Virus record (IMG/VR): IMGVR_UViG_3300020370_000002
Coordinates: 18,806 to 82,805 of that record
Direction: 5' to 3' (one strand)
Length of the DNA: 64,000 nucleotides
Origin: a virus
How positions within the stretch are numbered: the first letter of the stretch is position 1; the number at the start of each line of letters is the position of its first letter. Below the pieces are notes generated by a model that had not been told where the DNA came from, did no database searches, and saw only the letters and a list, made by a program, of their open reading frames with translations. Shown one piece after another: positions 3,001 through 64,000 of this stretch. Both the position numbers and the translations under genes were made by a program.

Positions 3001-4976
3001 TTGGGGCAAAAGTTGCTTATGTAGAAAGCGATACCGTTGCATACCTAACACATGCGTATACAGGAAGTACAAGCGCAAGTATAGCTATGCATACACAGGA
3101 ACTTGATATAGATTATGATACAGATTTCTTAGTTTGTGCAGTTCACTACACCGCATCTGAGAATGATAGTGCAGGCCAGTCTGGAAAATATCGAATAAGT
3201 GGTAATGGTATGACTTTCTTAGAAATTACTCCAGACCTAAATGCAATAGGAAGATCTGTAGTTGTTAATTCTCCTGTCCCTTTCTTACAATACCAAGCAG
3301 ATAATACTCAAGTTACAACTTATGCTAATATTCAACTTACTATGGCTGCCGTTAATTTTGATGAGGCAGAGTTTAAAGTAACAGGTAGTGGTTTTAGTCA
3401 AGTAAACCAAAGTCAAGAAGGTGTTTTCACTACAGGTACAAATAATTCTCGTACAGTTACTGTCCATAACAGTAGTAGTGCTATAACTTACTCTGCAACT
3501 CCCATAGATTTTACAGTAACTGCAAGAGAAAAGTCTGATCCAGATAATACAAGCAAGCAAGTAACTTCTACTTTCTCTATAGGAAAAATAAGGGAGGGTA
3601 TACAAGGTAACTCGACAGCTCTGGTATATTTATATAAAAATAGTGAGGACGATCCTGGCTCAGTAGGAAACTCTTTTCCTACCGTTACAGTAGCACTCTC
3701 AGGTACGGGAGCAGGGACAATTACAGGAGTCTCTTCTGGCGTTATATCAGGGGCGGGACAAATTGGAAGCACGGGATGGTTTAAAACTCCACAAACTCCT
3801 AATACAAACGAAAAAATATGGGTAGTTGCAGCAACTGCAAACGGCTTAGGAACTACAGATACAATTCTTAATACTGAATGGACCTCTCCAGTACAATTCT
3901 CAGGAGCAGACGGAAACCCAGGACCTGGGGGTTTCAGTAGCGCAACAGTAGAAATATTTAAACTAAGCACTGTTGGCACTGGGTCAACAACTACACCAAA
4001 CCAAGCTTTAACTTATAAGTTTTCTGATGGAACTTTAAAAAATAGTTCAGGAGTTGCTCAGAATACTGCTGGCAATGTTACAGGTTTTAATGGCTGGAGA
4101 ACAGTTGCTCCAAATCCTGATAGCACTAATAAATATTTATATAAAAGAACTGCAGCAGCGATAGCAACAACTTTAGCTACTCCTGCTAATACTACCGCCA
4201 GTATAGCTACAAATGACTGGTCTGACGCTATTTTAATAGCTCAACTTGTAGAAGGAGGTCCAGGAGCTCCTGGTAAATTATCAATAACTGGTACTTTGTA
4301 CTATCAAACTGGAGTTGTGGCTGTGGGAGGAAGTTTTACTCCTCCTAGTGTCCCTAGTGGCAGTATAAATTTTAGATTTAGTGACAATAAGTTCCAAGAG
4401 GGAGGCTCCTTCTTAGACACTGTAGATGGTTGGGCACTTAAAACTCCAACTTTTGCACCTTTTAATGCTAGTGATGTTGCGCAAAAATGGTATGCTTGTA
4501 CTTTCTCAGCAGAAGAAAACGAATCTGAAGGAGACATAGCAAGTGGCAGTAATCTTACCTTTGTTAATGTTACAGAGGTACATTCGTTTGATGGTGTTGT
4601 TGCCTTTACAGATTTAGAAAATGCGGGAGGAAGTACAGTAATACAAGGAGAGTATATAAACACGGGACAAATCAAAAGAGGTAGCCCTGAAGCATCAGAG
4701 ATAGACGGTACTAATTTTGTAGGTAATGGTGAATTTGTTATTAACTTGTTAGATGGAACAATTAATACTCCTAAATTTAAAGTTAAAGGAAGTACGGGAG
4801 ACGCAGAGTTTAAGGGCTCCGTAAAAGGAGGCTCTTTTGAGGGTACAAACTCCTTGCTTACAAATGCAGGAGATAAAATTACGGTAGGAAATAATGTCAC
4901 CATAGACGGACAAAATCAACAGATTAAGATAACAGATGCATCTGGTAATACGCGCGTAGTATTAGGAAAATTATAG
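1..4976 (+). CDS. Central tail fibre / tail-tip J-like host specificity protein (5'-truncated)
   Basis: Frame is open from position 3. J-family motifs (TDNPAWIFYDILTNNRYGLG, YCDELVPDGKGGQEPRF, GCTSQGQAVRYGRW), FnIII-like segment, C-terminal DASGNTRVVLGKL. Confidence 0.9.
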   Translation, partial: DYGSNTQADTEKYEGAGFTFNPGDVFQPALPGLGGVGVSSVPISFPSGALEKNNAKVITASGSQAALIDEVKILVTYPNGLYTQDGGKDKKWPSGAAYHIELAINRGSGDVYETVRGNGSKGGLSCFTHGGTYTSATTFEFRINLEQYQPFQAFKIRITRKTMHAFNDGHVQWPSLNEVFGGKHKIVGTSQIAGVQGLIKEKLNYPYTAMANVSFSSKSFQSVPSRTYECQGLKIKVPSNYVTRQENDGLNAQYNRNVSTGALVVDGSNNPLPQFWDGNFRDIDVFTDNPAWIFYDILTNNRYGLGEFLRSTDIDKFSLYKIARYCDELVPDGKGGQEPRFTANLYLTKATDAFKVMKDIATIFRGILYWSDSKFFAVIDEKREPIYTFSKANVIDGQFKYESTGDKTRANQIIVTWNNPESDYKLEPLLVEDRENQIKTGKIVSSKAMAYGCTSQGQAVRYGRWKLWTAINQTEVLSFETSINAGFLSPGDIVNIHDEADFRMPFSGRIRSCTNSEITIDRSVASDFANGFNYTIAVIIPKRTILLNQDRAVVKTSSGDVTLTRGDEVTEAQTEKSGSAVTLLNASQDTTDKNIVSALDTSGNSIELQYAESQIVEERTLTTGSATTNDGVDTIPISSAFSETPAVGAIWAIKETSTSTAVITESSYKQFKIMTIDETSKGKYGIVAVQYEPGKFDVLENDFTLDTPDPLYSPEGVSDVPAPKNIRILRMSSAGKDGEELALAWDPPDPVGSSGVSSNYEHLSYFEVTHNCTSSTGRPPTFTVPAERTSVGFNNVPDGLFAVFQIRTVSAKGRKSEAAVAKIQVEDIFSGNFPRTGGIIRGGFSSNDVMMIDSGSEKGTVKFTNTSFVAAPFTDIELGKRNTEADANTYSISTAPLANAQWPQQNSTGGSDLGWIFMDFSKLDASNPNADALKLIQLKQAGDSEYGVEYWYDGTKFIADSDSIWTGVGNVAVTQGERKVTGSGFNSSLKIPDTVRIGTFGAKVAYVESDTVAYLTHAYTGSTSASIAMHTQELDIDYDTDFLVCAVHYTASENDSAGQSGKYRISGNGMTFLEITPDLNAIGRSVVVNSPVPFLQYQADNTQVTTYANIQLTMAAVNFDEAEFKVTGSGFSQVNQSQEGVFTTGTNNSRTVTVHNSSSAITYSATPIDFTVTAREKSDPDNTSKQVTSTFSIGKIREGIQGNSTALVYLYKNSEDDPGSVGNSFPTVTVALSGTGAGTITGVSSGVISGAGQIGSTGWFKTPQTPNTNEKIWVVAATANGLGTTDTILNTEWTSPVQFSGADGNPGPGGFSSATVEIFKLSTVGTGSTTTPNQALTYKFSDGTLKNSSGVAQNTAGNVTGFNGWRTVAPNPDSTNKYLYKRTAAAIATTLATPANTTASIATNDWSDAILIAQLVEGGPGAPGKLSITGTLYYQTGVVAVGGSFTPPSVPSGSINFRFSDNKFQEGGSFLDTVDGWALKTPTFAPFNASDVAQKWYACTFSAEENESEGDIASGSNLTFVNVTEVHSFDGVVAFTDLENAGGSTVIQGEYINTGQIKRGSPEASEIDGTNFVGNGEFVINLLDGTINTPKFKVKGSTGDAEFKGSVKGGSFEGTNSLLTNAGDKITVGNNVTIDGQNQQIKITDASGNTRVVLGKL

Positions 4977-5048: not shown

Positions 5049-5387
5049 ATGAGTGCAGGAACATATAACTTAGTAGTCGACCAAGGCTCTAGCTTTGCTC
5101 TTGACTTGGCAATTAAGCAAGCAGGATCAGCTTTAAACTTGACTAATTATACTGGTCGAGCACAGCTGCGTACGGCTCACTCTGCTTCTTCTGTTTCTGC
5201 TACTTTTACAGTTACTAAAACTAATGCAGCTCAAGGTACTTTAAAATTGGAGCTGTCAGCAACTCAAACTGCTAACTTACCTGCAGGACAATATGTATAT
5301 GATTTAGAAATTTTCACTTCAGGCGATGCTATTGTTAAAAGAATTTTGCAGGGAGACGTAACTATAACACCGGAAGTCACACGATGA
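5049..5387 (+). CDS. Tail collar / fibre attachment protein (T5 p132/LtfC- or BppU-like)
   Basis: GTYNLVVDQG...YVYDLEI...RILQGDVTITPEVT; follows the central fibre gene. Confidence 0.65.
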   Translation: MSAGTYNLVVDQGSSFALDLAIKQAGSALNLTNYTGRAQLRTAHSASSVSATFTVTKTNAAQGTLKLELSATQTANLPAGQYVYDLEIFTSGDAIVKRILQGDVTITPEVTR

Positions 5388-5812: not shown

Positions 5813-6925
5813 ATGGCTCAAACAATGAAAATCAAAAGAAGTACCGGGACTGGCAAACCCACTTCGGTAGCACAGGGTGAGCTATTTTATGCGTACGGTA
5901 CAGGGGGTACTTACGGTAAACGACTCGCTATAGGCCATGTCAACGGCGGGGGCGATACTCCAGAGATTATCGGTGGTAAGTTCTTTACTGATTTACTCGA
6001 TGTTACAGCAGGAAATATAACTGCTAGTAAAGCCCTACTTCTAGATGCCAATTCTACTGTAGATGAATGGAAGATTAGAGCACAAGGACAGTTAAAACTT
6101 TTTGAAGCAACTGCAAATGGAAGCAATTATTTAGGTATAAAAGCTCCTGCAACAGTTAATAGTGATCTTACTTATACTCTTCCTGCAGAAGCAGTAAATG
6201 GTAGATTTTTACAAACAGACGGTTCGGGAGTTTTATCTTGGACTGCTGTTGCAACAACTATTCTTATAGGGGCAGATTCGGGTAGTAATGATACTGTAAA
6301 TCTTGGCGAAACTATTAACTTTACAGGAACAACCAATGAAATTGAAACCACGGTATCTAATAATGAAATAACAATAGGATTACCTGATAATGTTGTTATA
6401 GCGGGTAATCTAACAGTTAATGGTACAACTACTACTATTAATACAGCTACTCTTGATGTTGAAGACTCCTTAATTCAGTTAGCAAAAGCAAATACTTCTT
6501 CAGATAGTATAGATATTGGTCTTTATGGTATCTATGACACAGGAGGCACTGATAAATATTCAGGATTATTCAGAGATGCTTCTGATTCAGGAAAATGGAA
6601 ACTATTTAAAGACAATCAAGCCGCTCCTGCTGCAACAGTTAACCCTTCTGGAACAGGATATGCAGTAGCTACTCTTGTTGCCCACCTTGAAGACTCAAAT
6701 ATTACTGTTACAGGTGGATCAATTACAGGCATTACTGATCTTGCAGTAGCAGATGGAGGTACAGGACTTTCAGCAATTGCAAAAGGATCTATACTTGCAG
6801 CAAATTCAGCAAACGTACTCACAGCAGTAGATGGTGGAGGATCAACAGATAAAATGTTGTTATATACAGCATCTTCTGACACGATTTCATGGTCAAATAC
6901 TATAGACGGCGGAACTTATTCATAA
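5813..6925 (+). CDS. Tail fibre protein
   Basis: N-terminal KIKRSTG...GEL, LAVADGGTG, C-terminal IDGGTY typical of marine phage fibres. Confidence 0.7.
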   Translation: MAQTMKIKRSTGTGKPTSVAQGELFYAYGTGGTYGKRLAIGHVNGGGDTPEIIGGKFFTDLLDVTAGNITASKALLLDANSTVDEWKIRAQGQLKLFEATANGSNYLGIKAPATVNSDLTYTLPAEAVNGRFLQTDGSGVLSWTAVATTILIGADSGSNDTVNLGETINFTGTTNEIETTVSNNEITIGLPDNVVIAGNLTVNGTTTTINTATLDVEDSLIQLAKANTSSDSIDIGLYGIYDTGGTDKYSGLFRDASDSGKWKLFKDNQAAPAATVNPSGTGYAVATLVAHLEDSNITVTGGSITGITDLAVADGGTGLSAIAKGSILAANSANVLTAVDGGGSTDKMLLYTASSDTISWSNTIDGGTYS

Positions 6926-30081: not shown

Positions 30082-30390
30082 TTAAATGGTGAAGCTAACG
30101 CCACACCCGCACGCATCCTGTACATTAGGATTGTTTATTGTAAGCGAAGAACCTATGAGTTCTTCATGATAGTCTACTGTGCTTCCATGTACTGCCGTTA
30201 GGGCAGCTTCACCAACAACCACTAGATCATCTACTAATGTAAAGGTTAGTGGGAGTTCATCACAGTAGTCCCAAGTATATTCAAAACCCGCACAGCCACT
30301 AGGCTTCAGGTCTAAGAGTATATACTTCTTATTCTTCTCAATACGTTTACTGTTAAGATACTTCTTGGCACTCGCAGTTATGGTTAACAT
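30082..30390 (-). CDS. iscA: A-type Fe-S carrier (IscA/HesB/ErpA family)
   Basis: SGCAGFEY, NPN...ACGCGVSF. Confidence 0.92.
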   Translation of the reverse strand: MLTITASAKKYLNSKRIEKNKKYILLDLKPSGCAGFEYTWDYCDELPLTFTLVDDLVVVGEAALTAVHGSTVDYHEELIGSSLTINNPNVQDACGCGVSFTI

Positions 30391-30763
30391 TTTTACCCTT
30401 GTAATCCTCTATTGCAGCTTTTATTGCGTCTTCAGCTAAGACACTACAGTGGATCTTGACTGGGGGCAAGGAAAGTTCGTCCGCAATTTCGGTGTTCTTG
30501 ATTTGAAGAGCTGTATCAAGGCTTCGTCCCTTAACCCACTCGGTAAGGAGAGAGCTTGAAGCAATGGCGGATCCACATCCGTAAGTTTTAAACTTAGCAT
30601 CTTCAATGATGTTTTCATTATTGACTCGTATTTGTAGTCGCATAACATCCCCGCAAGCAGGTGCACCAACCATCCCCGTACCCACGGAGTCGTCTCCTTC
30701 GTCAAGTCGCCCAACGTTTCTTGGTCGTTCATAGTGTTCTAATACCTTATCAGAGTATGCCAT
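30353..30763 (-). CDS. iscU: Fe-S scaffold protein IscU
   Basis: MAYSDKVLEHYERPRNVG, GAPACGDVM, FKTYGCGSAIASSS, LPPVKIHCSVLAEDA. Confidence 0.97.
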   Translation of the reverse strand: MAYSDKVLEHYERPRNVGRLDEGDDSVGTGMVGAPACGDVMRLQIRVNNENIIEDAKFKTYGCGSAIASSSLLTEWVKGRSLDTALQIKNTEIADELSLPPVKIHCSVLAEDAIKAAIEDYKGKNVNHNCECQEVS

Positions 30764-33029
30764 ATTGCTTCTCAAATTTGCCCATTGAATAGTCGTCTCC
30801 GATTTCGAAGTCGCACCCAACTGGAGCGCCAGGAATAATAATTCCTCTGTCTTTCTGTATACAATACTTAAGTTTTTCTGAGTACACTTCTATCTCGTCG
30901 TCTGGAACTTCTGCAAGAATAGAATCGTGTACAAGTGCAAAGATACGGGCTTTCATCTTGCTTGCCTGTATATCATCATGCATATCTATAGCCCCAAGCA
31001 GGTTAATATCAGAAGCAGTAGACTGGACCAAAAAGTTAAGACCAGAACGAATGCTGTGACTTTTGATACCTGCGTCCGAAGATTTGACATTTGGTAATCT
31101 CCTTTTTCTACCAAAGAAACTGTATACAAACCCATTTTGTTCAATGAATCTGTGGTTGTCGTTTATCCACTTCTTAAGCGCATGAAACGATTCAAAGTAG
31201 TCATCAATAACTTCTTTTGCTTCTTGCTGACTAAAGTATTTGCCAGAGTCTTTGGTAACTTGCTCACTAATCTTCTTTGGGCCTGCACCATACATGATGC
31301 CGAATGTAACTGCTTTTGCAGCCTGTCTTTGTGTTGTGTATAGTTCTGCTACTTCTTCTACTTCACACGGTAGACGAAATACTGTCTTCGCAATACTACT
31401 GTGAAAGTTTCCGCCTGAACGAAATACTTCCATAAGTGCTTTGTCTTTGGCAAGAACTGCGGCAACATAAACCTCTGCCGTAGTCAAGTCCATTGCAACA
31501 ATCTTATGTCCTTCCGCCGCTTTGATACATCCTTTTACAGCAGGGTTATCCCGAGGAAGCTGTTGCATATTAAGCTTACCACTAGAACTGAGCCTACCGC
31601 TAGTAGTACCATGAAGGTTGAACGATGTGCGCAATCTGCTATCTCTATCCAGTTGCGGTATGATTTTGTCCAGATAAGTATTTTTAATTTTGGATCGTTG
31701 ACGTATGTCAAGGATAAGTCGTGGAATTTCCGACTGGGATCCAAGTTCTTGCAATACCTCTGCATCCGTAGAGTGAGCTCCTGTTCCTGTCTTTTTGCCA
31801 GTTGGTTGCAGATCAAGATAGTCAAAAAGAAGGGAACGTAGCTGGACAGTAGAATTAGGATTAAAATCTTTTCCATTGTACTTTTCCCACTTGTTTATTA
31901 TAGGGTTCTTGTATAGCCCAGTAACGGCAGTATCAATATCGTCCTGCATAAGCTCCTGAGCTGCGTATAATCTTTTCTTGTCGAAAGGAACACCGTTGTC
32001 CTGTGCATCAATCAGAAAGCGTGTGCCAGGAATGAGTATGTTATCGTATACCCACTTGAGTTTGGGGTTCTCTTTAATCTTCTTAAACTTGTCGTAAAGA
32101 AGATAAGTACATAGAGCATCCATTGCTGCATATGTTTTCATTATATCAAAGGGAATAGACCCCCACTGGAAGTCTCCTTTCAGGATGCCGTTTTCTTTTC
32201 TGTAGTTATCCATCCACTCATACATTGGCTTCTCATAGTCGCCATATGGAGTAAATCGAATAGATAACTGCTTCAGGCCATGCCCTCCGGGATTCTCGTC
32301 TATGAGATAGTGGAGCAGCATGGTGTCTTCTATTCTTGGGAACTCAAAGTTGAAGTGGTACTCAAAGAATGCAACGTCAAACTTTGCGTTATGAAATACT
32401 ACTCGCTTTTTGCTGAAGAGCGTTTGAAGAAGCTCTTCAGTCTCTTCATCAAAGCAGTCTGTTGAGATATATGCTCCGCGTTTGCCGTCGTAAGAAAGTG
32501 ATATCCCCAGAATGTGCCCGTCCCTAGGATAGAGCCCAGTCGTCTCGGAATCCAGAGCAATAAATGTACCAGAATCTGCGATTGCTTCTCGTAAAAACGT
32601 GTTACACTCTTTTGTATCTTGTATGCCAAATGCGATTGACTCATCTATTATCACCTCTTCTATCTCACCATTTATATACTTAATGATGCTTTCTTTTGAA
32701 TCTTCCCATGTCTTACGTGCTTCTGGCTTGAAGGTAAGCATGGCTGGGTTTATTACTGGCAAGAATTTATCTTCTACTTTCTTACCAGAATATTCTGTTA
32801 CTGAATTTATCTTTGTGAAGTATTTCAACGCATCACTCCCAACTAGAACAATCCAGTCATATAAGTCTGCGTTAAAGGTTATATCACAATCTCTCTTCAA
32901 TACTTTCTTTATAGTAGGATCAGAACAAAGCTGATACTGGTCGAACTCGAAAGCTCCACCAAACGCTTTGTTAAAGTCTGTTCTACTAGGTTTAGTTTCT
33001 ACTAGAGCAACTTTAGCTGGTAACTTCAT
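30750..33029 (-). CDS. Family A DNA polymerase with 3'-5' exonuclease (T5-like)
   Basis: DSETTG, HNAKFD, TSGRLSS, DLTTAE, RQAAKAVTFGIMYG, VHDS. Confidence 0.97.
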   Translation of the reverse strand: MKLPAKVALVETKPSRTDFNKAFGGAFEFDQYQLCSDPTIKKVLKRDCDITFNADLYDWIVLVGSDALKYFTKINSVTEYSGKKVEDKFLPVINPAMLTFKPEARKTWEDSKESIIKYINGEIEEVIIDESIAFGIQDTKECNTFLREAIADSGTFIALDSETTGLYPRDGHILGISLSYDGKRGAYISTDCFDEETEELLQTLFSKKRVVFHNAKFDVAFFEYHFNFEFPRIEDTMLLHYLIDENPGGHGLKQLSIRFTPYGDYEKPMYEWMDNYRKENGILKGDFQWGSIPFDIMKTYAAMDALCTYLLYDKFKKIKENPKLKWVYDNILIPGTRFLIDAQDNGVPFDKKRLYAAQELMQDDIDTAVTGLYKNPIINKWEKYNGKDFNPNSTVQLRSLLFDYLDLQPTGKKTGTGAHSTDAEVLQELGSQSEIPRLILDIRQRSKIKNTYLDKIIPQLDRDSRLRTSFNLHGTTSGRLSSSGKLNMQQLPRDNPAVKGCIKAAEGHKIVAMDLTTAEVYVAAVLAKDKALMEVFRSGGNFHSSIAKTVFRLPCEVEEVAELYTTQRQAAKAVTFGIMYGAGPKKISEQVTKDSGKYFSQQEAKEVIDDYFESFHALKKWINDNHRFIEQNGFVYSFFGRKRRLPNVKSSDAGIKSHSIRSGLNFLVQSTASDINLLGAIDMHDDIQASKMKARIFALVHDSILAEVPDDEIEVYSEKLKYCIQKDRGIIIPGAPVGCDFEIGDDYSMGKFEKQYGIL

Positions 33030-55680: not shown

Positions 55681-56135
55681 CAGTTTATGGTATAGCATAC
55701 GTAGACGCAGAGGGTCACATAGACTCTTTTTATATACCTGGCCCCACGGGTTATCCTGAAGAAGGAACCTCCGAGGCTGACAACACAAAAACAATCGTTC
55801 ATGTAACAGACGAAGTTACAGATATGTCAAGCTTTGTAAAATATAAATATTACAAAGATGGTATATGGAAAAGCCGTACAGGACCTCCCGCAGATTATTA
55901 TAACTGGAAAGATGAAGCTTGGGTTCTTGACTCTACGGAACTCTTTTTGCAACTAAGAAAGGAAAGAGATTTAAGACTTTACCAATGTGATTGGACACAG
56001 CTAGATGACTCTAAACTCAGCATGACAAAGAAGGGGGAGTGGGCAGAGTATAGACAAGCTCTTCGTGAAGTTCCACAAACTAATGGCGACGCAAAGTTAT
56101 TAAGCGAGGTAGTTTGGCCAGATAAACCATCATAG
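55677..56135 (+). CDS. Tail fibre assembly chaperone
   Basis: LRKERDLRLYQCDWTQL.D...W..YRQALREVP...WPDKP. Confidence 0.8.
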   Translation: MTVYGIAYVDAEGHIDSFYIPGPTGYPEEGTSEADNTKTIVHVTDEVTDMSSFVKYKYYKDGIWKSRTGPPADYYNWKDEAWVLDSTELFLQLRKERDLRLYQCDWTQLDDSKLSMTKKGEWAEYRQALREVPQTNGDAKLLSEVVWPDKPS

Positions 56136-56146
56136 AAAAATAATTC

Positions 56147-56175
56147 TTGACATTTAATCCCCTTTTGAGTATAAT
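56147..56175 (+). promoter_or_regulatory. Sigma70-type promoter, leaderless start
   Basis: TTGACA-17-TATAAT-6 nt-ATG. Confidence 0.85.
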
Positions 56176-56181
56176 TTCCCC

Positions 56182-56643
56182 ATGGCTAAAGAAGTAACAA
56201 CAATTTCTCCGGAAGGACTTGAAGTAGCAAACTCGTATCTCACTCTTGGGAATATTCGGGGTGTTTGCGAGCAGCTGCAAGTTGACGAAAAGAAGGTTGT
56301 TGATATATTAAATAAACGAGAAGTAAAGAAGTACATTGATACTGTTTACCTCGACACGGGGTATAGAAACAAAAATAACATTGGCTCTTTACTAGATGAG
56401 ATGATACAATCAAAGCTCGATGAAGCACAGGAAAGCGGTGTGTACTCCAGCAAAGACTTAGCTGACTTACTACAAATGGCTCACAAAATGCGAATGGATG
56501 AAATCAAAGCTCAAGCAGACCTTGAGAAAGCATCCGCTTCCAACATCAAGAATCAGACGAATGTTCAGATAAATGATGGTGTACCGTTCGGTCAGGGTAA
56601 CTACGGCAAGCTAATGGATAAACTACTCAATGGAACAGCCTGA
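56182..56643 (+). CDS. terS: Terminase small subunit (T5-like)
   Basis: ISPEGLEVANSYL, DTGYRN, KLDEA; upstream of terL. Confidence 0.75.
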   Translation: MAKEVTTISPEGLEVANSYLTLGNIRGVCEQLQVDEKKVVDILNKREVKKYIDTVYLDTGYRNKNNIGSLLDEMIQSKLDEAQESGVYSSKDLADLLQMAHKMRMDEIKAQADLEKASASNIKNQTNVQINDGVPFGQGNYGKLMDKLLNGTA

Positions 56644-56830
56644 TTTGAATGAAATATACACAAAGTTTGCCGCTCACGAAGTTCAGTGTGAAGAGCGATG
56701 GAAAACTATTTTTGCCCGTCTTGAGCGTATGGACGCAAAGATGGACAGACTACAAAATATGCTCATGGGAGCAACTGGAACCGTAATTTTATTTTTAGGA
56801 GGAATTATTATAACGCTACTTAACTCGTAG
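56630..56830 (+). CDS. Coiled-coil + TM small protein
   Basis: HEVQCEERW...; C-terminal TM. Confidence 0.6.
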   Translation: MEQPDLNEIYTKFAAHEVQCEERWKTIFARLERMDAKMDRLQNMLMGATGTVILFLGGIIITLLNS

Positions 56831-56859
56831 CCGACGCTGCAAAGCGTAGAGATAATGAT

Positions 56860-57303
56860 GTGGAACCAATCACAGCCGCAGTGGCGGCTTTGGGTGCGCT
56901 AAAACAGGGTGTAAAAGTCGGTAAAGAGTTACACGATATGGCCGCAGATATAGGCAAACTCTGGGGCGGAATAGATGCAGCCAGGGGAGCGCACACCAAA
57001 AAGAAGAAAGGTCAGATACTCTCTGTAGAAGAGGAAGCATTACAAACTTTTGCAGCAAAACGAAAAGCAGATGAAATTGAGAAGGAACTTCGAGAGTTTA
57101 TCATCTATACTTTGGGTGGAGCAGCCTGGTCTCAGTTAATTGAAATCCGAGGGCAAGTAAGAAAACAGCGAGCTGAAGCGGCCCTCGCGGAACAACGAAA
57201 ACGACGAAAAGCCGTTGAAGGTACACTTATTACAGCCACAGTTATATTTTGTGGATTTGCTATATACTGGATGGGCTACGTAGTTATAAACAAGGGGTTT
57301 TAA
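56860..57303 (+). CDS. Helical protein with C-terminal TM
   Basis: MEPITAA start; architecture shared with 57331..57783. Confidence 0.6.
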   Translation: MEPITAAVAALGALKQGVKVGKELHDMAADIGKLWGGIDAARGAHTKKKKGQILSVEEEALQTFAAKRKADEIEKELREFIIYTLGGAAWSQLIEIRGQVRKQRAEAALAEQRKRRKAVEGTLITATVIFCGFAIYWMGYVVINKGF

Positions 57304-57330
57304 TGCAAGGTTCTGTTTGGGAGAACGCTA

Positions 57331-57783
57331 GTGATTGGGGAGGTCGCAGCAGTTTTAAGTGCCCTCAAGGCACTGAACGACGGTATTCAGACTATAAAGC
57401 AGTCCGCGGGAAACGCAGGTGATTTACAATCACTTATTGGTAGATACGCAGGCGCTTCAGAAAAGTATAGGGATGTAGAAAAAGCAAGAACAGGGCGAAT
57501 GAGCTACAAAGAAGCTCTCGCCATGGAAAGTGCCAAGAGACAACTATTAAACTTTGATAGACAATTAAAAGACATATGCTTGATGCAGGGTCAAGGTGAC
57601 CTGTATAATTCAATAAAGACTCGAATGGAAGAGTCACGGATAGCCCACGAAAAAGAACTTGTACGTCTTCGAGCAAGACGCAGAGAAATAAAGAAGTATA
57701 TAAGCTGGGCAAGTATGGGCATACTTTGTTGGGTTTTTTCAATGGCAATGGTTTGGCTGATAATAGCCATATGGGAAGCATAA
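57331..57783 (+). CDS. Helical protein with C-terminal TM
   Basis: MIGEVAA start; basic patch before the TM. Confidence 0.6.
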   Translation: MIGEVAAVLSALKALNDGIQTIKQSAGNAGDLQSLIGRYAGASEKYRDVEKARTGRMSYKEALAMESAKRQLLNFDRQLKDICLMQGQGDLYNSIKTRMEESRIAHEKELVRLRARRREIKKYISWASMGILCWVFSMAMVWLIIAIWEA

Positions 57784-58074
57784 ATGCCGGCAACAAAATT
57801 AAATGAAACAACAGAACTTGCAATCCCACTTAAAAACCTCATAGGTTTAGTGGCGTTCACAGCAATATCTGTCTGGGGGTATACGTCAATCACAGAGCGA
57901 ATAACCTTTCTGGAACATGATGTAGACCTAATAAAAGAAGACGTAAAAGAAAACGAAGAGTGGATTGATACCTTTACTCCTCCTCCAGAAGTACGAGATA
58001 CGGTAAATAGAGTGAGAGAGCTAGAGTTACAAATCAAAGAGCTGAAGGTTAAACTTCAGGAAAGGGAGTATTGA
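57784..58074 (+). CDS. TM + coiled-coil protein
   Basis: IPLKNLIGLV...WGY..ITERI. Confidence 0.6.
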   Translation: MPATKLNETTELAIPLKNLIGLVAFTAISVWGYTSITERITFLEHDVDLIKEDVKENEEWIDTFTPPPEVRDTVNRVRELELQIKELKVKLQEREY

Positions 58075-58075
58075 T

Positions 58076-58138
58076 ATGTGTATTATTTGTGGATGTAGTC
58101 CGTGTGTATGTGGAGGTTTCAAATGCCAAAAGGTGTAG
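58076..58138 (+). CDS. 20-aa Cys-rich peptide
   Basis: GGGAG RBS; MCIICGCSPCVCGGFKCQKV. Confidence 0.35.
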   Translation: MCIICGCSPCVCGGFKCQKV

Positions 58139-58194
58139 GATATCCTAAAAAGAAGAAGAAGCGTGGTAAGAAAAGGAAAAAGCCGTCTTACTAA
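58123..58194 (+). CDS. 23-aa highly basic peptide
   Basis: GGAGG RBS; MPKGVGYPKKKKKRGKKRKKPSY. Confidence 0.55.
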   Translation: MPKGVGYPKKKKKRGKKRKKPSY

Positions 58195-58414
58195 ACTTTT
58201 AAAACGTTTTGACAAAATGATGAAAAGCGGGTTACTTACAAAAGTGACCAAGAAGGTGAGCAAAGGCATGAGGAAAACATACCGAGGAAAAAGAGCACCG
58301 AAAGGCTACCACTTTATGCCTGGCGGCAGACTAATGAAAGACTCTGCCCATAAGAGGAAGAAGCGTGGCGGTAAGAAGAAAACGAAAACCCGCAAGAAAA
58401 AGCGGGGGTACTAA
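58163..58414 (+). CDS. Basic small protein (start may be 58268)
   Basis: APKGYHFMPGGRLMK motif; K/R-rich. Confidence 0.55.
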   Translation: MVRKGKSRLTKLLKRFDKMMKSGLLTKVTKKVSKGMRKTYRGKRAPKGYHFMPGGRLMKDSAHKRKKRGGKKKTKTRKKKRGY

Positions 58415-58682
58415 GCGCAAAGCAAAGCCATTAAGTGCAAGCGTTAAGAAAACTCTTCAAGCAAAAGCAAAAAGAAGTAAGCGTTATACTTATGGACAAC
58501 TAGCACGCGTTTACAGAAGAGGACAGGGAGCGTATCTTAGCTCTGGCTCCCGTCCAGGTGTGTCAATGTCACAGTGGGCATTTGGTCGTGTAAACTCTTT
58601 TATGAGAGGCGGGCACTCACAGGACAACGACATAAAGAGAAAGAGACGTGGCACGAAAACGAAGAAGCGTACCAAAAGATAA
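58365..58682 (+). CDS. Basic small protein
   Basis: VYRRGQGAYLSSGSRPG...QWAFGRVNSF. Confidence 0.7.
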   Translation: MAVRRKRKPARKSGGTKRKAKPLSASVKKTLQAKAKRSKRYTYGQLARVYRRGQGAYLSSGSRPGVSMSQWAFGRVNSFMRGGHSQDNDIKRKRRGTKTKKRTKR

Positions 58683-58887
58683 AAAGACCAGAGTACCTAA
58701 AAAGTATTTAGGAGGCACCAAGGGTTCTAAAAGGTCACAGCTTGCCGCAGTTCTTAAAAGAATTTCAGCATTATATAAAGCGGGAAAGACTGTCCCAAGA
58801 TCGCTAATCAAGCAACGAATAGCGTTAGGAAAGGCGAATGGCACACGCAAAAAGAGGAAAAAGTCTGCTAAAAAGAGCAGGCGTTAG
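58648..58887 (+). CDS. Basic small protein
   Basis: KDKKTRVPKKYL; K/R-rich. Confidence 0.6.
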   Translation: MARKRRSVPKDKKTRVPKKYLGGTKGSKRSQLAAVLKRISALYKAGKTVPRSLIKQRIALGKANGTRKKRKKSAKKSRR

Positions 58888-59134
58888 AGGCTACAATAAG
58901 CCTAAGCGCACGCCTCGACACCCGAAGAAGTCGCACATTGTGGTAGCAAGAGTAGGGCATAAAGTAAAGACTATTCGTTTTGGTCAGCAAGGTGCTAAAA
59001 CCGCAGGTAAGCCAAAGAAAGGCGAGAGCCAAGCGATGAAAAGAAAAAGAGCCTCATTTAAAGCTCGGCACAGAAAGAATATTGCAAGAGGTAAAATGAG
59101 CGCGGCCTACTGGGCCAACAAAGTGAAATGGTAA
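58838..59134 (+). CDS. Basic small protein
   Basis: NKPKRTP.HPKKSH.V...IRFGQQG...SFKARH...SAAYWANKVKW. Confidence 0.75.
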   Translation: MAHAKRGKSLLKRAGVRGYNKPKRTPRHPKKSHIVVARVGHKVKTIRFGQQGAKTAGKPKKGESQAMKRKRASFKARHRKNIARGKMSAAYWANKVKW

Positions 59135-59135
59135 T

Positions 59136-59188
59136 CTCGTTCATCCTTTAAGGACGGAAGTAAGGAGCACTTAGCCTGAAGGAACGCC
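59136..59188 (+). promoter_or_regulatory. Glutamine riboswitch (glnA motif / glutamine-I class)
   Basis: CGTTCA-TCCT TTA AGGA-CGGAAGTA-AGG...CCT-GAAG-GAACG: P1 CGTTC/GAACG, P2, E-loop and P3. Confidence 0.8.
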
Positions 59189-59213
59189 AGACACGGCTAA
59201 AAGGAGAGATACT

Positions 59214-59267
59214 ATGAAAGAAGTAACTTTAGTCTATCGTGGTGTTACATACACTAAAAAGGTATAG
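59214..59267 (+). CDS. 17-aa YRG peptide (DUF4278/downstream-peptide-like)
   Basis: AAGGAG RBS; MKEVTLVYRGVTYTKKV. Confidence 0.75.
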   Translation: MKEVTLVYRGVTYTKKV

Positions 59268-59280
59268 GGAGAGGTAAAAT

Positions 59281-59871
59281 ATGGATATACTTTTAGAACT
59301 TGCAACAACTTTTTGGCAATGGAGCGTAGTAATCGTTCTAATTTTAATTGGTTTTATAATCAGTTGGTTTGACGGCCAAGGAGAAGAACGTGTAGGTTTT
59401 AAAATGCCCTTTGGTATGCCCGTATTACAACCTATACCAATAGAAACAAAAGACAAAGGGTTTTGGAAAGGGATTCTTCTGTGGCTTCTTGGTAAAAGAC
59501 AGTGGGAGGTCGCAGAAGACTTCTGGTTTAAACTAGACGGAGAAACCTACATGATTCCCGCAGGATTTCAGTTTGACGGGGCTTCTGTACCAAAGTTTCT
59601 TGCTACCTTTCTTTCGCCTGTAGGAGTTTTACTTATGGGTGGTTTAGTACATGATTATGGGTACAAGTACGCAACTTTAATGAGAGATGACGGTACTAAT
59701 ATTGGTTATAGAGACCAAGCGTACATGGACAGACTTTTTCGAGATATATGCATCGAAGTAAACGGGTTTAAATTTTTAAACTATCTTGCCTACTGGTCAC
59801 TTCGCCTTGTTGGCTTTGTGGCTTGGAACGGGCACAAAAAGAGAGGTACGCATACTGAGGAGAGCGCATGA
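59281..59871 (+). CDS. DUF1353-like protein with N-terminal TM
   Basis: IPAGFQFDGASVP, GLVHDYGY, D.LFR. Confidence 0.8.
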   Translation: MDILLELATTFWQWSVVIVLILIGFIISWFDGQGEERVGFKMPFGMPVLQPIPIETKDKGFWKGILLWLLGKRQWEVAEDFWFKLDGETYMIPAGFQFDGASVPKFLATFLSPVGVLLMGGLVHDYGYKYATLMRDDGTNIGYRDQAYMDRLFRDICIEVNGFKFLNYLAYWSLRLVGFVAWNGHKKRGTHTEESA

Positions 59872-60101
59872 GTGAAGAAGGTAAGAATAAATACCAGAAG
59901 TGGATTGATTTAGCAGAAGCTGTAGATAGCTGGAGAATATTTCCACGAGCATTTTTAAGCGTGTATATCTTTCTTCTCTACTACAGCACAATGTGGTTTA
60001 TGGCCTTAGAAGCACCAAGCCTTGAACAGTCGGGCCTTATATCAATTATCGTGGGTGCGGGTGCTGCATGGTTCGGATTATATACAGGAAGTAAAAAGTA
60101 A
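59868..60101 (+). CDS. Two-TM membrane protein (holin candidate)
   Basis: DSWRIFPR...WFM.L..P..EQSGL...GAGAAWFGLY. Confidence 0.6.
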   Translation: MSEEGKNKYQKWIDLAEAVDSWRIFPRAFLSVYIFLLYYSTMWFMALEAPSLEQSGLISIIVGAGAAWFGLYTGSKK

Positions 60102-60110
60102 GAGGCCACT

Positions 60111-61415
60111 ATGGCAATAGAGATTAGTCGAGCGGATATTATTTCGCAAGAGCTATTAGAGTTACAATCTGAGACAAGGTTTCTCAAATTACCAGTAGAT
60201 CCCTACTTGGAGCTACTCGGCATAACGCCCCTTGCTAGTCAAGTGGCGATCATAAATGCGATTAATAATCCGAAATACCGTTTTGTATGTGCGGCTGTTT
60301 CGAGAAGGCAGGGTAAAACCTACATCGCAAACATAATCGGGCAGCTAGTTTCGCTAGTTCCCAACTCAAACATACTCATAATGTCCCCCAACTATGCCTT
60401 GTCTCAGATTTCTTTTGATCTTCAAAGAAATCTGATAAAGCACTTTGATTTAGAAGTTGCGAAAGACAATGCAAAAGATAAGGTAATAGAACTAACAAAT
60501 GGATCCACAATTCGAATGGGAAGTGTTAATCAGGTTGATAGCTGTGTTGGTCGTAGCTACGACCTTATCATCTTCGATGAGGCTGCTTTGGCCGATGGCA
60601 GGGATGCTTTTAACGTAGCCCTACGCCCCACGCTGGATAAAGACAATTCAAAAGCAATCTTTATAAGTACCCCCAGAGGAAAAAACAACTGGTTTTCAGA
60701 CTTTTTCTACAGAGGCTTTTCAGATGAATTTAAAGAATGGGCGTCTATTCGAGCTACTTATAAGGATAATCCTCGCATGTCTGAGACGGATATTGCGGAA
60801 GCTCGAAAATCTATGTCCGAGGCTGAGTTTCGACAAGAGTATGAAGCAGATTTCAACACATACGAAGGACAAATTTGGAACTTTAATCACGAAGAATGTA
60901 TTGGAAACTTCGACGAGATTGACACCTCAAAGATGGATGTCTTTGCGGGCTTGGATGTCGGTTACCGAGACCCTACGGCCTTTTGTGTAATTGGCTATGA
61001 CTGGGATGAAGAAAAGTTTTACTTACTGGATGAGTACTTAGATGCCGAACAAACAACAGAAACTCACGCAAAAGAAATTCAAGCACGAATTGATAAATGG
61101 GGTATTGACTATATTTATATCGATTCTGCTGCGCAGCAAACACGATTTGACTTCGCACAAAACTATGACATATCTACTATTAACGCAAAGAAGTCCGTTC
61201 TCGATGGAATCGCGCAGGTAGCTGGAATAGTAGATAATGATAAATTACTTGTTGAACAGACTTGTAAAGAATCCCTCTCTGCGTTAGATCAGTACCAGTG
61301 GGACCCCAATCCCAACCTAATGAAAGAGAAACCGAAACACAACTATGCATCGCACATGGCGGACGCGTTAAGGTATGCATTATACTCATTTGAGACTTCG
61401 GCAATAAGTTTTTAG
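60111..61415 (+). CDS. terL: Terminase large subunit
   Basis: SRRQGKT, IFDEAA, ISTPRG, FRQEYEA, GLDVG, HMADALRYA. Confidence 0.96.
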   Translation: MAIEISRADIISQELLELQSETRFLKLPVDPYLELLGITPLASQVAIINAINNPKYRFVCAAVSRRQGKTYIANIIGQLVSLVPNSNILIMSPNYALSQISFDLQRNLIKHFDLEVAKDNAKDKVIELTNGSTIRMGSVNQVDSCVGRSYDLIIFDEAALADGRDAFNVALRPTLDKDNSKAIFISTPRGKNNWFSDFFYRGFSDEFKEWASIRATYKDNPRMSETDIAEARKSMSEAEFRQEYEADFNTYEGQIWNFNHEECIGNFDEIDTSKMDVFAGLDVGYRDPTAFCVIGYDWDEEKFYLLDEYLDAEQTTETHAKEIQARIDKWGIDYIYIDSAAQQTRFDFAQNYDISTINAKKSVLDGIAQVAGIVDNDKLLVEQTCKESLSALDQYQWDPNPNLMKEKPKHNYASHMADALRYALYSFETSAISF

Positions 61416-61437
61416 GATACCTGGTCAAAAATAATAT

Positions 61438-61466
61438 TTGACATGATACCCCAAACTAGGTATAAT
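61438..61466 (+). promoter_or_regulatory. Sigma70-type promoter for head genes
   Basis: TTGACA-17-TATAAT. Confidence 0.85.
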
Positions 61467-61500
61467 TCTATCATTGAAAAATTAGAAATCCAAGAACCTA

Positions 61501-61866
61501 ATGGTCACACTTAAACGAGATATAGTAAAATATATTCGAGACAAAGCGAAGAATAAGTACGATAAAGGTTCGGAGTGCTACATTTGTGGAGCAACAGAGA
61601 AACTTGACTTTCACCACTATTACACGTTAGCGCCCCTAGTACATAAATGGGTTCGGGAAAATGACTTAAATCCTATGTACGTTCTTGCTTTCAGAGAAGA
61701 CTTTATAGAGGACCACCACGACGAATTATACGTACATGCGGTTACTCTATGTCATACGCACCATAGACAATTACATAAAGTATACGGACGAGACCCAGGC
61801 CTTGGAACAGCAAACAAGCAGAAGCGCTGGGTAGAGATACAAAGAGAAAAACATGGCATGGTATGA
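61501..61866 (+). CDS. HNH nicking endonuclease (T5-like)
   Basis: CYICG...DFHH...TLC..HH..LH; lies between terL and portal as in T5. Confidence 0.85.
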   Translation: MVTLKRDIVKYIRDKAKNKYDKGSECYICGATEKLDFHHYYTLAPLVHKWVRENDLNPMYVLAFREDFIEDHHDELYVHAVTLCHTHHRQLHKVYGRDPGLGTANKQKRWVEIQREKHGMV

Positions 61867-63064
61867 CAGATTCTTAGGCAGGGAAGACGAGGAAAAAGCT
61901 AATCCCGCACAGTCGCTATTAGGAGGGACTTCCGAGAGTACTCGAGAGCCTACTATAAGCTATGAGCGACAATACGAAGAATTAGAAATTGTCAACCGTG
62001 CAGTTAATATGATTGTTGATGACGCTGCAGAAATTCCTTCTACAATATTAGGCTCTAGGCGTCAAACAGGAATTATAAAAAACATAAAAAGAGCAAAAGT
62101 TAATCAGCTCTTAAATGTAGAACCAAACTTATTTCAAGATATAAATACATTTAAGCGTAACTTAATAACGGACTTTATACTAGATGGAAATATTTTTATA
62201 TACTACGATGGAGCACATTTGTACCATCTTCCTTCAAGTAAAATGTCTATTGAAGCAAGCGAAAGCACCTATGTAGAAAAATATACTTTCTCTCAGTCTA
62301 TAGACTATAGCCCAAAAGAAATCATTCATATAAAAGAAAATTCTTTTTATTCTATTTACAGAGGAGTACCTAGACTTAGTCCAGCCTTGAGAACTATGCA
62401 GTTAATTGGCTCAATGAGAAAGTTTCAAGATAATTTCTTTAAAAACGGTGCAGTTCCAGGATTAGTTTTAAAAAGCCCTAATACTCTTTCTGAAAAGATC
62501 AAAGAGAGAATGATACAATCATGGAGTGTAAGGTATAGGCCCGAAGGCGGAGGAAGGCGCCCTTTAATTTTAGATGGCGGCATTGAAGTTGATTCTCTTT
62601 CTAATACTAACTTCAAGGATTTGGACTTTCAGAATTCAATATCAGAAAATGAAAAAATTATACTTAAAGCTCTTGGCGTACCACCCATATTACTTGATTC
62701 AGGTAATAATGCAAATATAAGACCAAACTTAAGATTGTACTATTTAGAGACGATACTCCCAATAGTGCGAAAAATAAACTTTGGGTTTGAAAGATTTTTT
62801 GGGTTTGAAATTAAAGAAGATATTACAGATATCCCCGCTTTACAGCCAGAGTTAAGAGACCAATCAGCGTATTATACCTCCCTAGTAAACGGTGGTATAA
62901 TAACTATAAACGAAGCAAGAGAGCAGCTAGGTTTTGAACCTATTGCTGGTCAAGACGAAGTAAGAGTTCCTGCAAATATAGCAGGGAGTGCAGCAAACCC
63001 AGACGAAGGGGGAAGGCCTGCCGAATCAGAAGAAACTATAACCGAAGATGGAGAGGAAGAATAA
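61853..63064 (+). CDS. Portal protein (HK97 family)
   Basis: PNLFQ, LDGN, IIHIK, FFKNGAVPG, LGVPP, INEARE.LG. Confidence 0.95.
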   Translation: MAWYDRFLGREDEEKANPAQSLLGGTSESTREPTISYERQYEELEIVNRAVNMIVDDAAEIPSTILGSRRQTGIIKNIKRAKVNQLLNVEPNLFQDINTFKRNLITDFILDGNIFIYYDGAHLYHLPSSKMSIEASESTYVEKYTFSQSIDYSPKEIIHIKENSFYSIYRGVPRLSPALRTMQLIGSMRKFQDNFFKNGAVPGLVLKSPNTLSEKIKERMIQSWSVRYRPEGGGRRPLILDGGIEVDSLSNTNFKDLDFQNSISENEKIILKALGVPPILLDSGNNANIRPNLRLYYLETILPIVRKINFGFERFFGFEIKEDITDIPALQPELRDQSAYYTSLVNGGIITINEAREQLGFEPIAGQDEVRVPANIAGSAANPDEGGRPAESEETITEDGEEE

Positions 63065-63376
63065 ATGGCGGGATCGTCAGTACAAAAGAAAAAAATGGCA
63101 GTTACAATGGCCATGTATTTCGCAGAGAATGGTTATCTTCCAACTCCAAAAGAATTCTCGAACGACCCCATTAGACCACCAGAAATAAAAATATCAACTA
63201 TACGAAAAATATTTGGTTCTTGGTCGATAATGGAGAAATATACGAGATCATTTTGTCCCGACATTATGCGTGGACTTACTAATGTAAAGCCTAAAATAAT
63301 CGATCCTTTAAAGGAGCTAAACAAGGCACAGACCGCAGAAGCGGAAAAAGAGGGGGCAAATGGAAAAAGTATTTAA
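63065..63376 (+). CDS. Hypothetical protein
   Basis: IRKIFGSWS motif; lies between portal and protease. Confidence 0.55.
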   Translation: MAGSSVQKKKMAVTMAMYFAENGYLPTPKEFSNDPIRPPEIKISTIRKIFGSWSIMEKYTRSFCPDIMRGLTNVKPKIIDPLKELNKAQTAEAEKEGANGKSI

Positions 63377-64000
63377 TCTCACCTCTACTTTTAAGTCTCA
63401 TACTGAAGAAGATGGTAGTGTTATGATTCGAGGTATGGCTAGTACCAATGACTTTGATCGCGCGGGCGATTCAATTTCAACTGATGCTTGGACTAAAGGT
63501 GGATTAAACAATTTTGAAAAGAACCCTATTATTCTTTTCAATCATGATTACAACAGACCTATTGGTAGAGCTACTGGTTTAAAAACTACTGCCAATGGAC
63601 TGGAGCTGACTGCTAAGATAAGCAAAGCAGCAAAAGATGTTGTAGATTTAGTTAAAGACGGTGTTCTTGGGGCCTTTTCTGTTGGTTTCCGAGTCAAGGA
63701 CGCTGATTATATCGAGGAAACCGACGGTTTAAAGATAAAGGACGCTGAGTTGTTTGAGGTATCGGTAGTATCTGTACCATGTAATCAATCAGCTACTTTT
63801 TCACTGGCGAAGTCTTTTGACTCCATGGCGGAGTACGAAGAGTTCAAAAAAACTTTCACTAATAGTGACGGGGCGCAAGTCCAAAAGGAGATAACAATGT
63901 CTGAAGAGACAACTCAACCCGTTGACTTGGAAGCTTTTGCTAAAAAAGTAGCTGAGGAAACTGCTGCTAAGATAGCCATGAAGCAAGCCGAGCAAAAAGC
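63360..64000 (+). CDS. HK97-type prohead protease fused in frame to a scaffold/capsid region (3'-truncated)
   Basis: DRAGD, LFNHD..RPIG, AFSVGF, LFEVSVVSVPCN; no stop before the window end; internal AAGGAG + ATG at 63897. Confidence 0.9.
   Translation, partial: MEKVFNLTSTFKSHTEEDGSVMIRGMASTNDFDRAGDSISTDAWTKGGLNNFEKNPIILFNHDYNRPIGRATGLKTTANGLELTAKISKAAKDVVDLVKDGVLGAFSVGFRVKDADYIEETDGLKIKDAELFEVSVVSVPCNQSATFSLAKSFDSMAEYEEFKKTFTNSDGAQVQKEITMSEETTQPVDLEAFAKKVAEETAAKIAMKQAEQK

Follow-up and report, generated by a model that had tools for sequence, protein, structure and literature searches.

The window analysed here is a stretch of 64,000 nucleotides (nt), bases 18806-82805 of the 82,805-base-pair (bp) IMG/VR virus record IMGVR_UViG_3300020370_000002. 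Between the phage packaging genes terS and terL, on the + strand, it carries a compact cassette composed of a glutamine-I (glnA-type) riboswitch aptamer identified by covariance match (59136-59190), a linker and putative expression platform assigned from thermodynamic models only (59187-59213), the Shine-Dalgarno (SD) sequence AAGGAG (59201-59206), located 7 nt ahead of the ATG at 59214, and a 17-codon open reading frame (ORF) at 59214-59267 encoding MKEVTLVYRGVTYTKKV plus a stop codon. This micro-ORF was assigned from its SD sequence, its conservation and profile comparison of its product. An initial annotation made from the letters had described the locus as a glutamine riboswitch controlling a 17-residue peptide with a YRG motif, and each of the letter-level features that it listed was found in its place. 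We consider the element likely to be a functional type-I glutamine riboswitch that controls translation initiation of the YRG micro-protein, with the peptide itself as the regulated product.

The aptamer belongs to the glutamine-I class

Comparison of the whole window with the 4227 families of Rfam 15 by cmscan identified RF01739, the glutamine-I (glnA) riboswitch, at 59136-59190 (+) with a score of 50.8 bits, the gathering score being 35 (E-value 3.3e-8, or 3.1e-9 when the 6-kilobase (kb) region 56000-62000 was scanned). The match extends over model positions 1-53 of 53, covering the full model, and every consensus position is preserved. The initial annotation had proposed a covariance search with the models of both glutamine aptamer classes; RF01739 was significant, and a permissive Rfam scan of 56000-62000 returned nothing besides it at E<=1, including no RF01704 (Downstream-peptide, or glutamine-II). 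Because this is the only Rfam match in the region, we regard the element as a single aptamer, neither tandem nor nested.

Three stems on the + strand can be read directly from the letters: P1 (CGTTC 59138-59142 with GAACG 59182-59186), P1a (TCCT 59144-59147 with AGGA 59151-59154) and P2 (AGG 59163-59165 with CCT 59175-59177). Two further segments were located between them, CGGAAGTA at 59155-59162 and GAAG at 59178-59181. The same three-stem fold was predicted on a set of 20 aptamers preceding YRG peptides, in which compensatory changes affecting both sides of the helix occurred at 6 of 12 base pairs, in support of the glnA identity. P1 and the junctions ACGGAAGUA and GAAGGAACGC were invariant in this set, an invariance that is built in because the search pattern had fixed P1 and the junctions. 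In one contig from an RNA library (X16, depth 3.9), base 59177, the last of P2, is C and not T, which would create an A-C mismatch with A 59163; at that depth the difference may be an error.

The micro-ORF encodes a single-repeat relative of DUF4278

The 17-residue product consists of a single [LIV]YRGV.Y unit, and longer viral peptides encoded behind aptamers contain two or three [LIV]YRGV.[YW] units. All ten longer viral YRG peptides tested matched PF14105 (DUF4278), four above the 25.3-bit cut-off and the remaining ones with E-values from 1.6e-3 to 7.6e-5. The 17-mer itself is below the 20-residue minimum of the Pfam family scan; a six-frame PF14105 search and profile-profile comparison were used. 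Alignment of seven short with seven longer peptides by hhalign gave a probability of 90.8% and an E-value of 1.2e-6 over 11 columns centred on YRG, and residues Y8, R9, G10 and Y13 are invariant in 7/7 of the short peptides. Two unrelated phages, represented by contigs L051 and L056, encode an 18-residue peptide of the form M-EV.L.YRG..YKK, with the arginine specified by CGA or AGA. On these profile relations, we assign the peptide as a single-repeat relative of DUF4278 and not as a member by the Pfam threshold of 25.3 bits.

The cassette is retained while its neighbors vary

A lineage-specific string of 19 bases matched 13 IMG/VR contigs; 12 of these proved to be true relatives, the match in L248 being due to chance. 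The synteny comparison suggested by the initial annotation favored its proposal, as an aptamer, an AGGAG sequence and an ORF of 16-17 codons were found at the same position in 12/12 true relatives. Alignment of the 13 sequences (window plus relatives) gave a mean column identity of 91%. Within the micro-ORF, the variants comprise eight synonymous states, four conservative replacements (K2R, V4I, T12K and K16R) and one in-frame codon loss.

The gene for a 98-residue protein upstream of the switch is kept in the related contigs inspected, and L013 has an extra small hydrophobic ORF (5124-5325) between this gene and the aptamer. On the other side, a DUF1353 gene follows the micro-ORF after a gap of 10 nt in ten relatives. 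L007 and L019 instead have an unrelated 122-residue ORF (1019-1387 in L007; 8675-9043 in L019 as oriented) after a gap of 33 nt, in the place of DUF1353 and the 77-residue protein gene that follows it in the window. The cassette is thus retained while the neighbors on both sides vary.

Equivalent cassettes occur in the unrelated phages L051 and L056. The P1a and P2 stems of both aptamers are fully compensated. In L056, a promoter-like sequence (776-804), the aptamer (817-865), the ORF (887-943) and a terminator (954-969) follow one another, and in L051 a terminator at 6096-6113 follows the cassette. These stand-alone arrangements are our main reason for assigning regulation to the peptide instead of a downstream gene. 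Such a cassette would be a portable, host-derived unit reporting nitrogen status. When compared with GenBank phages by blastn, 59100-59300 had no match, and 58000-62000 gave only short pieces of 67-76% identity from neighboring genes. The stretch is present in marine metagenome runs of several studies other than its probable source.

The leader is predicted to act on translation initiation

Between 59190 and 59281 we detected no terminator-like site on the + strand, the nearest being at 59320-59340 inside the DUF1353 ORF, and the SD sequence lies 15 nt 3′ of P1. Because no terminator follows the aptamer and the SD sequence is this close to P1, control should be translational. The initial annotation had proposed pairing of TTAGCC (59171-59176) with GGCTAA (59195-59200) as the expression platform. 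The two segments are indeed exact complements, but the pairing did not hold up as evidence for a platform: a 6-nt perfect complement between aptamer and linker occurred in 13% of 5000 linker shuffles, and most relatives have only 5 bp of it (AGCCU/AGGCU), in a shifted register. We therefore rejected it as evidence, since it is not above chance. ATCTC/GAGAT, a second candidate present in the minimum-energy fold, was also rejected, as it is nested with P1 and not mutually exclusive with it, is missing in L008 and is likewise not above chance in linker shuffles.

In the predicted minimum-energy fold of the leader, the 5′ flank together with the 5′ strands of both P1 and P1a (approximately 59128-59142) pairs with GGAGAGAUACUAU (59203-59215); the energy is -22.8 kcal/mol versus -13.6 with P1 enforced, and this pairing, too, is not above chance (13% of shuffles). 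The same bases are also contested by a small hairpin within the linker (GCC 59186-59188 with GGC 59195-59197). Across the models, the SD sequence and spacer have their candidate partners at 59130-59149, which takes in the 5′ flank plus the upstream strands of P1 and P1a. When P1 was enforced, the mean unpaired probability of the SD sequence increased from 0.40-0.50 to 0.69-0.80 in five of six lineage members, and among 88 viral leaders the accessibility of the ribosome-binding site rose in 54, fell in 2 and was unchanged in 32.

By analogy with the leaders of Synechocystis gifB and of Prochlorococcus that have been tested, the element should be an ON switch with glutamine. When glutamine is scarce, the 5′ flank and the 5′ half of the aptamer would be available for pairing with the SD and spacer region; once glutamine is bound, P1 and P1a would lock and the ribosome-binding site would be freed. 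The switch would ride a long rightward transcript between terS and terL. As the aptamer starts 1 nt past the upstream stop codon, a terminating ribosome would cover the 5′ flank, and we infer that upstream translation may influence aptamer folding as well.

The switch lies in a rightward block of genes between terS and terL

The record is labeled with a direct terminal repeat, which is an exact duplication of 4,911 bp with 0 mismatches. Positions 59090-64000 of the window (record 77895-82805) are identical to record 1-4911, and the duplicated stretch starts inside the ORF at 58838-59134. It has the look of a duplicate from assembly or circular permutation and not of a T5-style terminal repeat. 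On this interpretation, the two RF01739 matches in the record represent one locus, and the phage has one copy of the switch. When read in this way, the genome has a length of about 77,894 bp, a guanine-cytosine (GC) content of 39.9% and one tRNA-Trp.

The 153-residue product of terS (56182-56640, +) matches phrog_3802 (E-value 1e-38). Just upstream is a promoter-like site, TTGACA-17-TATAAT, with 12/12 consensus positions (56147-56175, +), a possible start of the switch-carrying transcript; the promoter scan found 12 promoter-like sites versus 9.6 expected in shuffles. Eight further small ORFs, several of them very basic, lie between terS and the switch, among them a DUF5824 ORF recognized by family match at 58365-58679 (+). 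The interval 58163-59134 (+) holds four overlapping ORFs of 79-105 residues, one being the DUF5824 ORF, that are very rich in lysine and arginine. Pieces of this interval are 67-73% identical in DNA sequence to genes of the Roseobacter phages CRP-1, CRP-603 and CRP-345 and the Pelagibacter phage HTVC202P. The 98-residue, lysine- and arginine-rich protein directly upstream of the switch (58838-59134, +) matches phrog_7595 (E-value 2.5e-39) and gave no Pfam match; its stop codon, TAA at 59132-59134, ends 1 nt ahead of the RF01739 match.

Downstream of the micro-ORF, the DUF1353 gene (59281-59868, +) encodes 196 residues (PF07087, 44.5 bits; phrog_1158) and possesses its own GGAG-type SD sequence within the 13-nt gap after the peptide stop codon. 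It is followed by a gene for a 77-residue protein (59868-60101, +) assigned to phrog_10198, a family of unknown function, with no Pfam match, and by terL (60111-61412, +), which contains Terminase_6N and Terminase_6C domains. An HNH-like ORF (61501-61866) and then the portal gene come after terL, and all genes around the switch point rightward. Just before the HNH-like ORF is a second perfect 12/12 sigma-70 promoter consensus (61438-61466, +). The initial placement of the switch inside a packaging operon is fair, given its position between terS and terL with no intervening + strand terminator-like site up to DUF1353. No glutamine synthetase gene was found in the phage genome.

Core genes and IscU point to a probable marine gammaproteobacterial host

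The phage had been called T5-like from the window, and this description applies at a distance. For terL, identity to Vibrio phage PG07, a member of Demerecviridae according to its record, and to its kin is 50%, and the DNA polymerase is 45% identical to those of Aeromonas and Vibrio phages of 112-117 kb; the genome, at about 77.9 kb, is much smaller than theirs. By these comparisons it is a distantly T5-like, uncultured marine phage related to Demerecviridae and without a cultured close relative.

Genes for an IscA-like protein (102 residues) and IscU adjoin the DNA polymerase gene at 30082-30820 (-). IscU (30353-30817, -), assigned to PF01592 by the precomputed domains of its homologues, has cellular-length homologues that are 83-85% identical, the sole one with an organism name being from Luminiphilus sp., at 83%; metagenome copies of the phage protein reach 93-95% identity. 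Among chosen genomes, four switch-carrying streamlined Porticoccaceae gave identities of 75-77%, and one genome each of SAR86, Pelagibacteraceae and SAR116 gave 61%, 34% and 31%, respectively. No match was obtained in Crocosphaera watsonii, in the incomplete Porticoccaceae metagenome-assembled genome (MAG) G001 or in G057. The IscU identities, together with core genes of Demerecviridae type and strong SD sites, make a gammaproteobacterial host likely, and we take the host to be probably a marine gammaproteobacterium. A cyanobacterial host is unlikely; the suggestion of a non-cyanobacterial host in the initial annotation is plausible in light of the Luminiphilus and Porticoccaceae identities and the absence of a match in Crocosphaera.

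Glutamine aptamers precede micro-ORFs in many phages and marine bacteria

To place the cassette in a wider setting, we collected viral aptamers with a gapped pattern of the aptamer core, which matched at least 120 IMG/VR contigs; the 120 used contained 132 aptamer instances. After 11 first members of tandem pairs and 6 aptamers at contig ends were set aside, 115 were evaluable. The counts obtained with this pattern, viral and cellular, apply among the matches listed. An ATG-initiated ORF of 16-65 residues (median 38) began within 10-45 nt of 111/115 viral aptamers, versus 19/113 on the antisense side that served as a control. The encoded peptides formed clusters of 43, 34 (28 with YRG), 13, 8 and 7 members in addition to 6 singletons. 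Members of the largest cluster are basic, contain W and C, have approximately 30 residues and are not of the YRG type. A looser Y[RK]G screen gave 41/134, including chance matches (L037, L047, L080, L096 and L117), and the clustered count is preferred. At the level of sequence, these data suggest that nearly all phage glutamine switches drive micro-ORFs.

The same pattern was applied to one genome per prokaryote species and matched at least 120 loci. By record title, 51 of 120 are cyanobacterial and 67 proteobacterial. The proteobacterial loci include 19 from SAR86 and 26 from uncultured Alphaproteobacteria, together with SAR116, Pelagibacteraceae, Porticoccaceae and others, uncultured Gammaproteobacteria among them. 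This suggests that the aptamer is common in SAR86, SAR116 and SAR11-type genomes. In the literature available to us in part, the motif is described as cyanobacterial and from the marine metagenome, and RF01739 in SAR86 is mentioned in passing in the portion of one report that was accessible (PMC12379486). A YRG peptide is encoded behind the aptamer at 29 cyanobacterial loci, 2 proteobacterial loci (L176, Porticoccaceae, and L205, SAR86) and 1 other. By eye, several of the viral families that are not of the YRG type resemble peptides encoded behind aptamers in Pelagibacteraceae, SAR86 and a betaproteobacterial MAG.

RF01739 was found in 2/151 genomes sampled from the order of the Porticoccaceae MAG and in 5/121 from its family. 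All five switch-carrying genomes of the family are 1.3-1.9 megabases in size, and four of them have tandem aptamers. In the streamlined Porticoccaceae L251, L255, L256 and L257, tandem aptamers are followed by a three-repeat YRG peptide of 59-60 residues, and these loci have a GC content of 36-38%. Against PF14105, the SAR86 peptide scored 30.2 bits and the Porticoccaceae peptide 22.8. The single-repeat form was found in 14 viral contigs and the window, and no such form of 16-18 residues was present in the 120 bacterial loci.

Evaluation of alternative functions

Several observations weigh against the assignment of the element as a glutamine-responsive switch whose output is the peptide. Glutamine binding and switching are inferred from sequence. 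Enforcement of P1 had no effect in L027 and L056, and in L051 the SD accessibility decreased from 0.51 to 0.40. The folds predicted for close relatives disagree, and no single platform pairing is conserved or above chance. Furthermore, the increase in accessibility in 54/88 viral leaders is partly built in and is not independent support, because the enforced helix removes possible partners of the SD sequence. Contigs from three RNA libraries in two studies cover the aptamer and peptide (X16, 58981-59209 at no less than 99%; X15, 59051-59245 and then an L007-type variant; X17, 59056-59271 with 13 differences), which is a hint of transcription and not proof, as DNA carry-over is possible; the uncovered parts of 58300-60300 are evidence of nothing. 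For the peptide, the earlier DUF4278 assignment stood with respect to the YRG unit and the hhalign relation and failed with respect to a direct profile match: when the complete phage genome was searched in six frames with PF14105, nothing matched at E<=10, a null result that is hard to interpret for 17 residues against a 57-position model. Finally, the micro-ORF stops 10-13 nt before the next start codon in 11/13 lineage sequences, making coupling to DUF1353 possible.

This spacing is the basis of the alternative that survives best, although we judge it improbable. The micro-ORF could be mainly a leader, such that its glutamine-dependent translation would pass ribosomes on or protect the mRNA, DUF1353, the 77-residue protein gene and terL would be gated by nitrogen status and the peptide sequence would be secondary. 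The gap from the stop codon to the DUF1353 start measures 13 nt in the window and 10 nt in ten relatives, and in the latter the stop codon also overlaps the next SD-like sequence, AGGAA; the interval from 59190 to the DUF1353 start at 59281 has no + strand terminator-like site. Against this alternative, the YRG core is kept through codon changes across unrelated phages and cellular genomes. Gating is also difficult to reconcile with the terminators in L051 and L056, which leave nothing downstream to gate, with the unrelated gene located 33 nt away in L007 and L019, and with the separate SD sequence of DUF1353.

The initial annotation had also offered modulation of glutamine synthetase as a function of the peptide. 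In this scenario, which we consider very unlikely, the phage would use an IF17-like inactivator of the host enzyme that is made at high glutamine. The precedent is established in Synechocystis, where the cited sections place gifB/IF17 under glutamine-riboswitch control and identify DUF4278 as part of IF17 (PMC6212724). In contrast to what this role would require, the N-terminal DUF4278 moiety of IF17 is described in the relevant sections as disposable for function and the C-terminal IF7-like part as the portion that binds glutamine synthetase (PMC6316151, PMC6212724), which undercuts inhibition by a bare YRG unit. The window ORF ends after 17 residues, holds one YRG unit only and does not include an IF7-like C-terminal region. 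The same sections describe short Prochlorococcus DUF4278 proteins without the IF7-like part, and they present inhibition of glutamine synthetase by inactivating factors as unique to cyanobacteria (PMC6316151, PMC6212724), whereas the nearest relatives of the phage and its IscU point to Gammaproteobacteria. Nor does the phage possess a glutamine synthetase gene.

That the cassette is a recently captured, non-functional passenger, whose RNA may fold as an aptamer without a role in infection, is scarcely credible: the lineage members are only about 9% diverged, which makes conservation within the lineage weak evidence on its own, but the aptamer consensus positions are all intact, the cassette persists in 12/12 relatives while both neighbors vary, the peptide variation is mostly synonymous and equivalent cassettes recur in unrelated phages.

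Having set these alternatives against a glutamine switch that controls the peptide, we put forward a broader proposal only tentatively. The single-repeat YRG peptide of 16-18 residues might be a phage-specific minimal effector whose release is gated by glutamine and which acts on a nitrogen-status target, other than glutamine synthetase, shared by marine Gammaproteobacteria and cyanobacteria; phage glutamine riboswitches in general might drive at least five families of host-mimicking micro-proteins. If this is true, ocean phages read host nitrogen status via one RNA sensor. At 17 residues the peptide is the smallest natural version of the DUF4278 unit, and it is small enough to synthesize as a probe for binding partners of DUF4278/IF17-like micro-proteins.

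Comparison with known glutamine riboswitches

Both aptamer classes act as glutamine riboswitches, and the switch raises expression under nitrogen excess, according to the portions of two reports available to us (PMC6212724, PMC6316151), the first of which places the glnA aptamer upstream of DUF4278 genes in 25/28 cyanobacterial genomes. The gifB leader of Synechocystis sp. PCC 6803 resembles the window element in several respects, as far as that partial account goes (PMC6212724): it is an RF01739 aptamer with all consensus junction nucleotides, it forms a 5′ leader directly ahead of an ORF that starts with [LIV]YRG..Y, and its control is probably translational and ON, as is predicted for the window switch. 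The products differ, since IF17 is about 150 residues long and binds glutamine synthetase through its C-terminal part and the window peptide has 17 residues with one YRG unit. Unlike gifB, the window switch lies in a polycistronic phage block, 1 nt past the previous stop codon, and its host is probably non-cyanobacterial.

RF01704, the Downstream-peptide or glutamine-II class of marine Synechococcus and Prochlorococcus, offers a second parallel: a glutamine aptamer ahead of very short DUF4278 ORFs, on the partial evidence of two papers (PMC2864571, PMC6212724). In the accessible part of the former, the ORFs of the Downstream-peptide class are given as "typically 17 to 100 amino acids" in length and share a conserved amino-acid motif (PMC2864571). 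In contrast, the window aptamer belongs to RF01739, and the RF01704 genes, in those same parts, are cellular and picocyanobacterial.

Glutamine riboswitches carried by phages have already been published. The accessible portions of two reports describe them in the OM43 phage Melnitz, the Pelagibacter phage Mosig and pelagimyophage genomes, where they are tied to a tmRNA gene (PMC9004378), and in T4-like cyanophages (PMC9964418). As in the window, these are glnA-type aptamers in marine phages, some of which infect heterotrophic hosts that do not themselves carry the switch. The Melnitz, Mosig and cyanophage examples are myophages, and the Melnitz switch is assigned to the tmRNA gene with no micro-peptide described in those portions; the window phage, unlike them, is T5-like and has its switch between terS and terL, followed by a clear 17-codon ORF. 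Our literature search found no link in print between a phage switch and a DUF4278-type peptide. What sets the present case apart is the type of phage and its probable class of host, together with a plain single aptamer and a peptide of minimal, one-repeat form.

Among cellular loci, those of SAR86 and the streamlined Porticoccaceae share with the phage the aptamer class and the YRG family, occur in marine Gammaproteobacteria and have a similar GC content (36-38% versus 39.9% in the phage). They possess two tandem aptamers, a leader of about 60 nt with a hairpin and a three-repeat peptide of 56-60 residues, whereas in the phage a single aptamer and a leader of 27 nt precede a one-repeat peptide. 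We regard these tandem loci as the cellular gammaproteobacterial counterpart of the phage cassette. Overall, the comparison extends the pairing of aptamer and YRG peptide, known from cyanobacteria and the myophages that infect them, to a lineage of T5-like siphophages whose probable hosts are marine Gammaproteobacteria.

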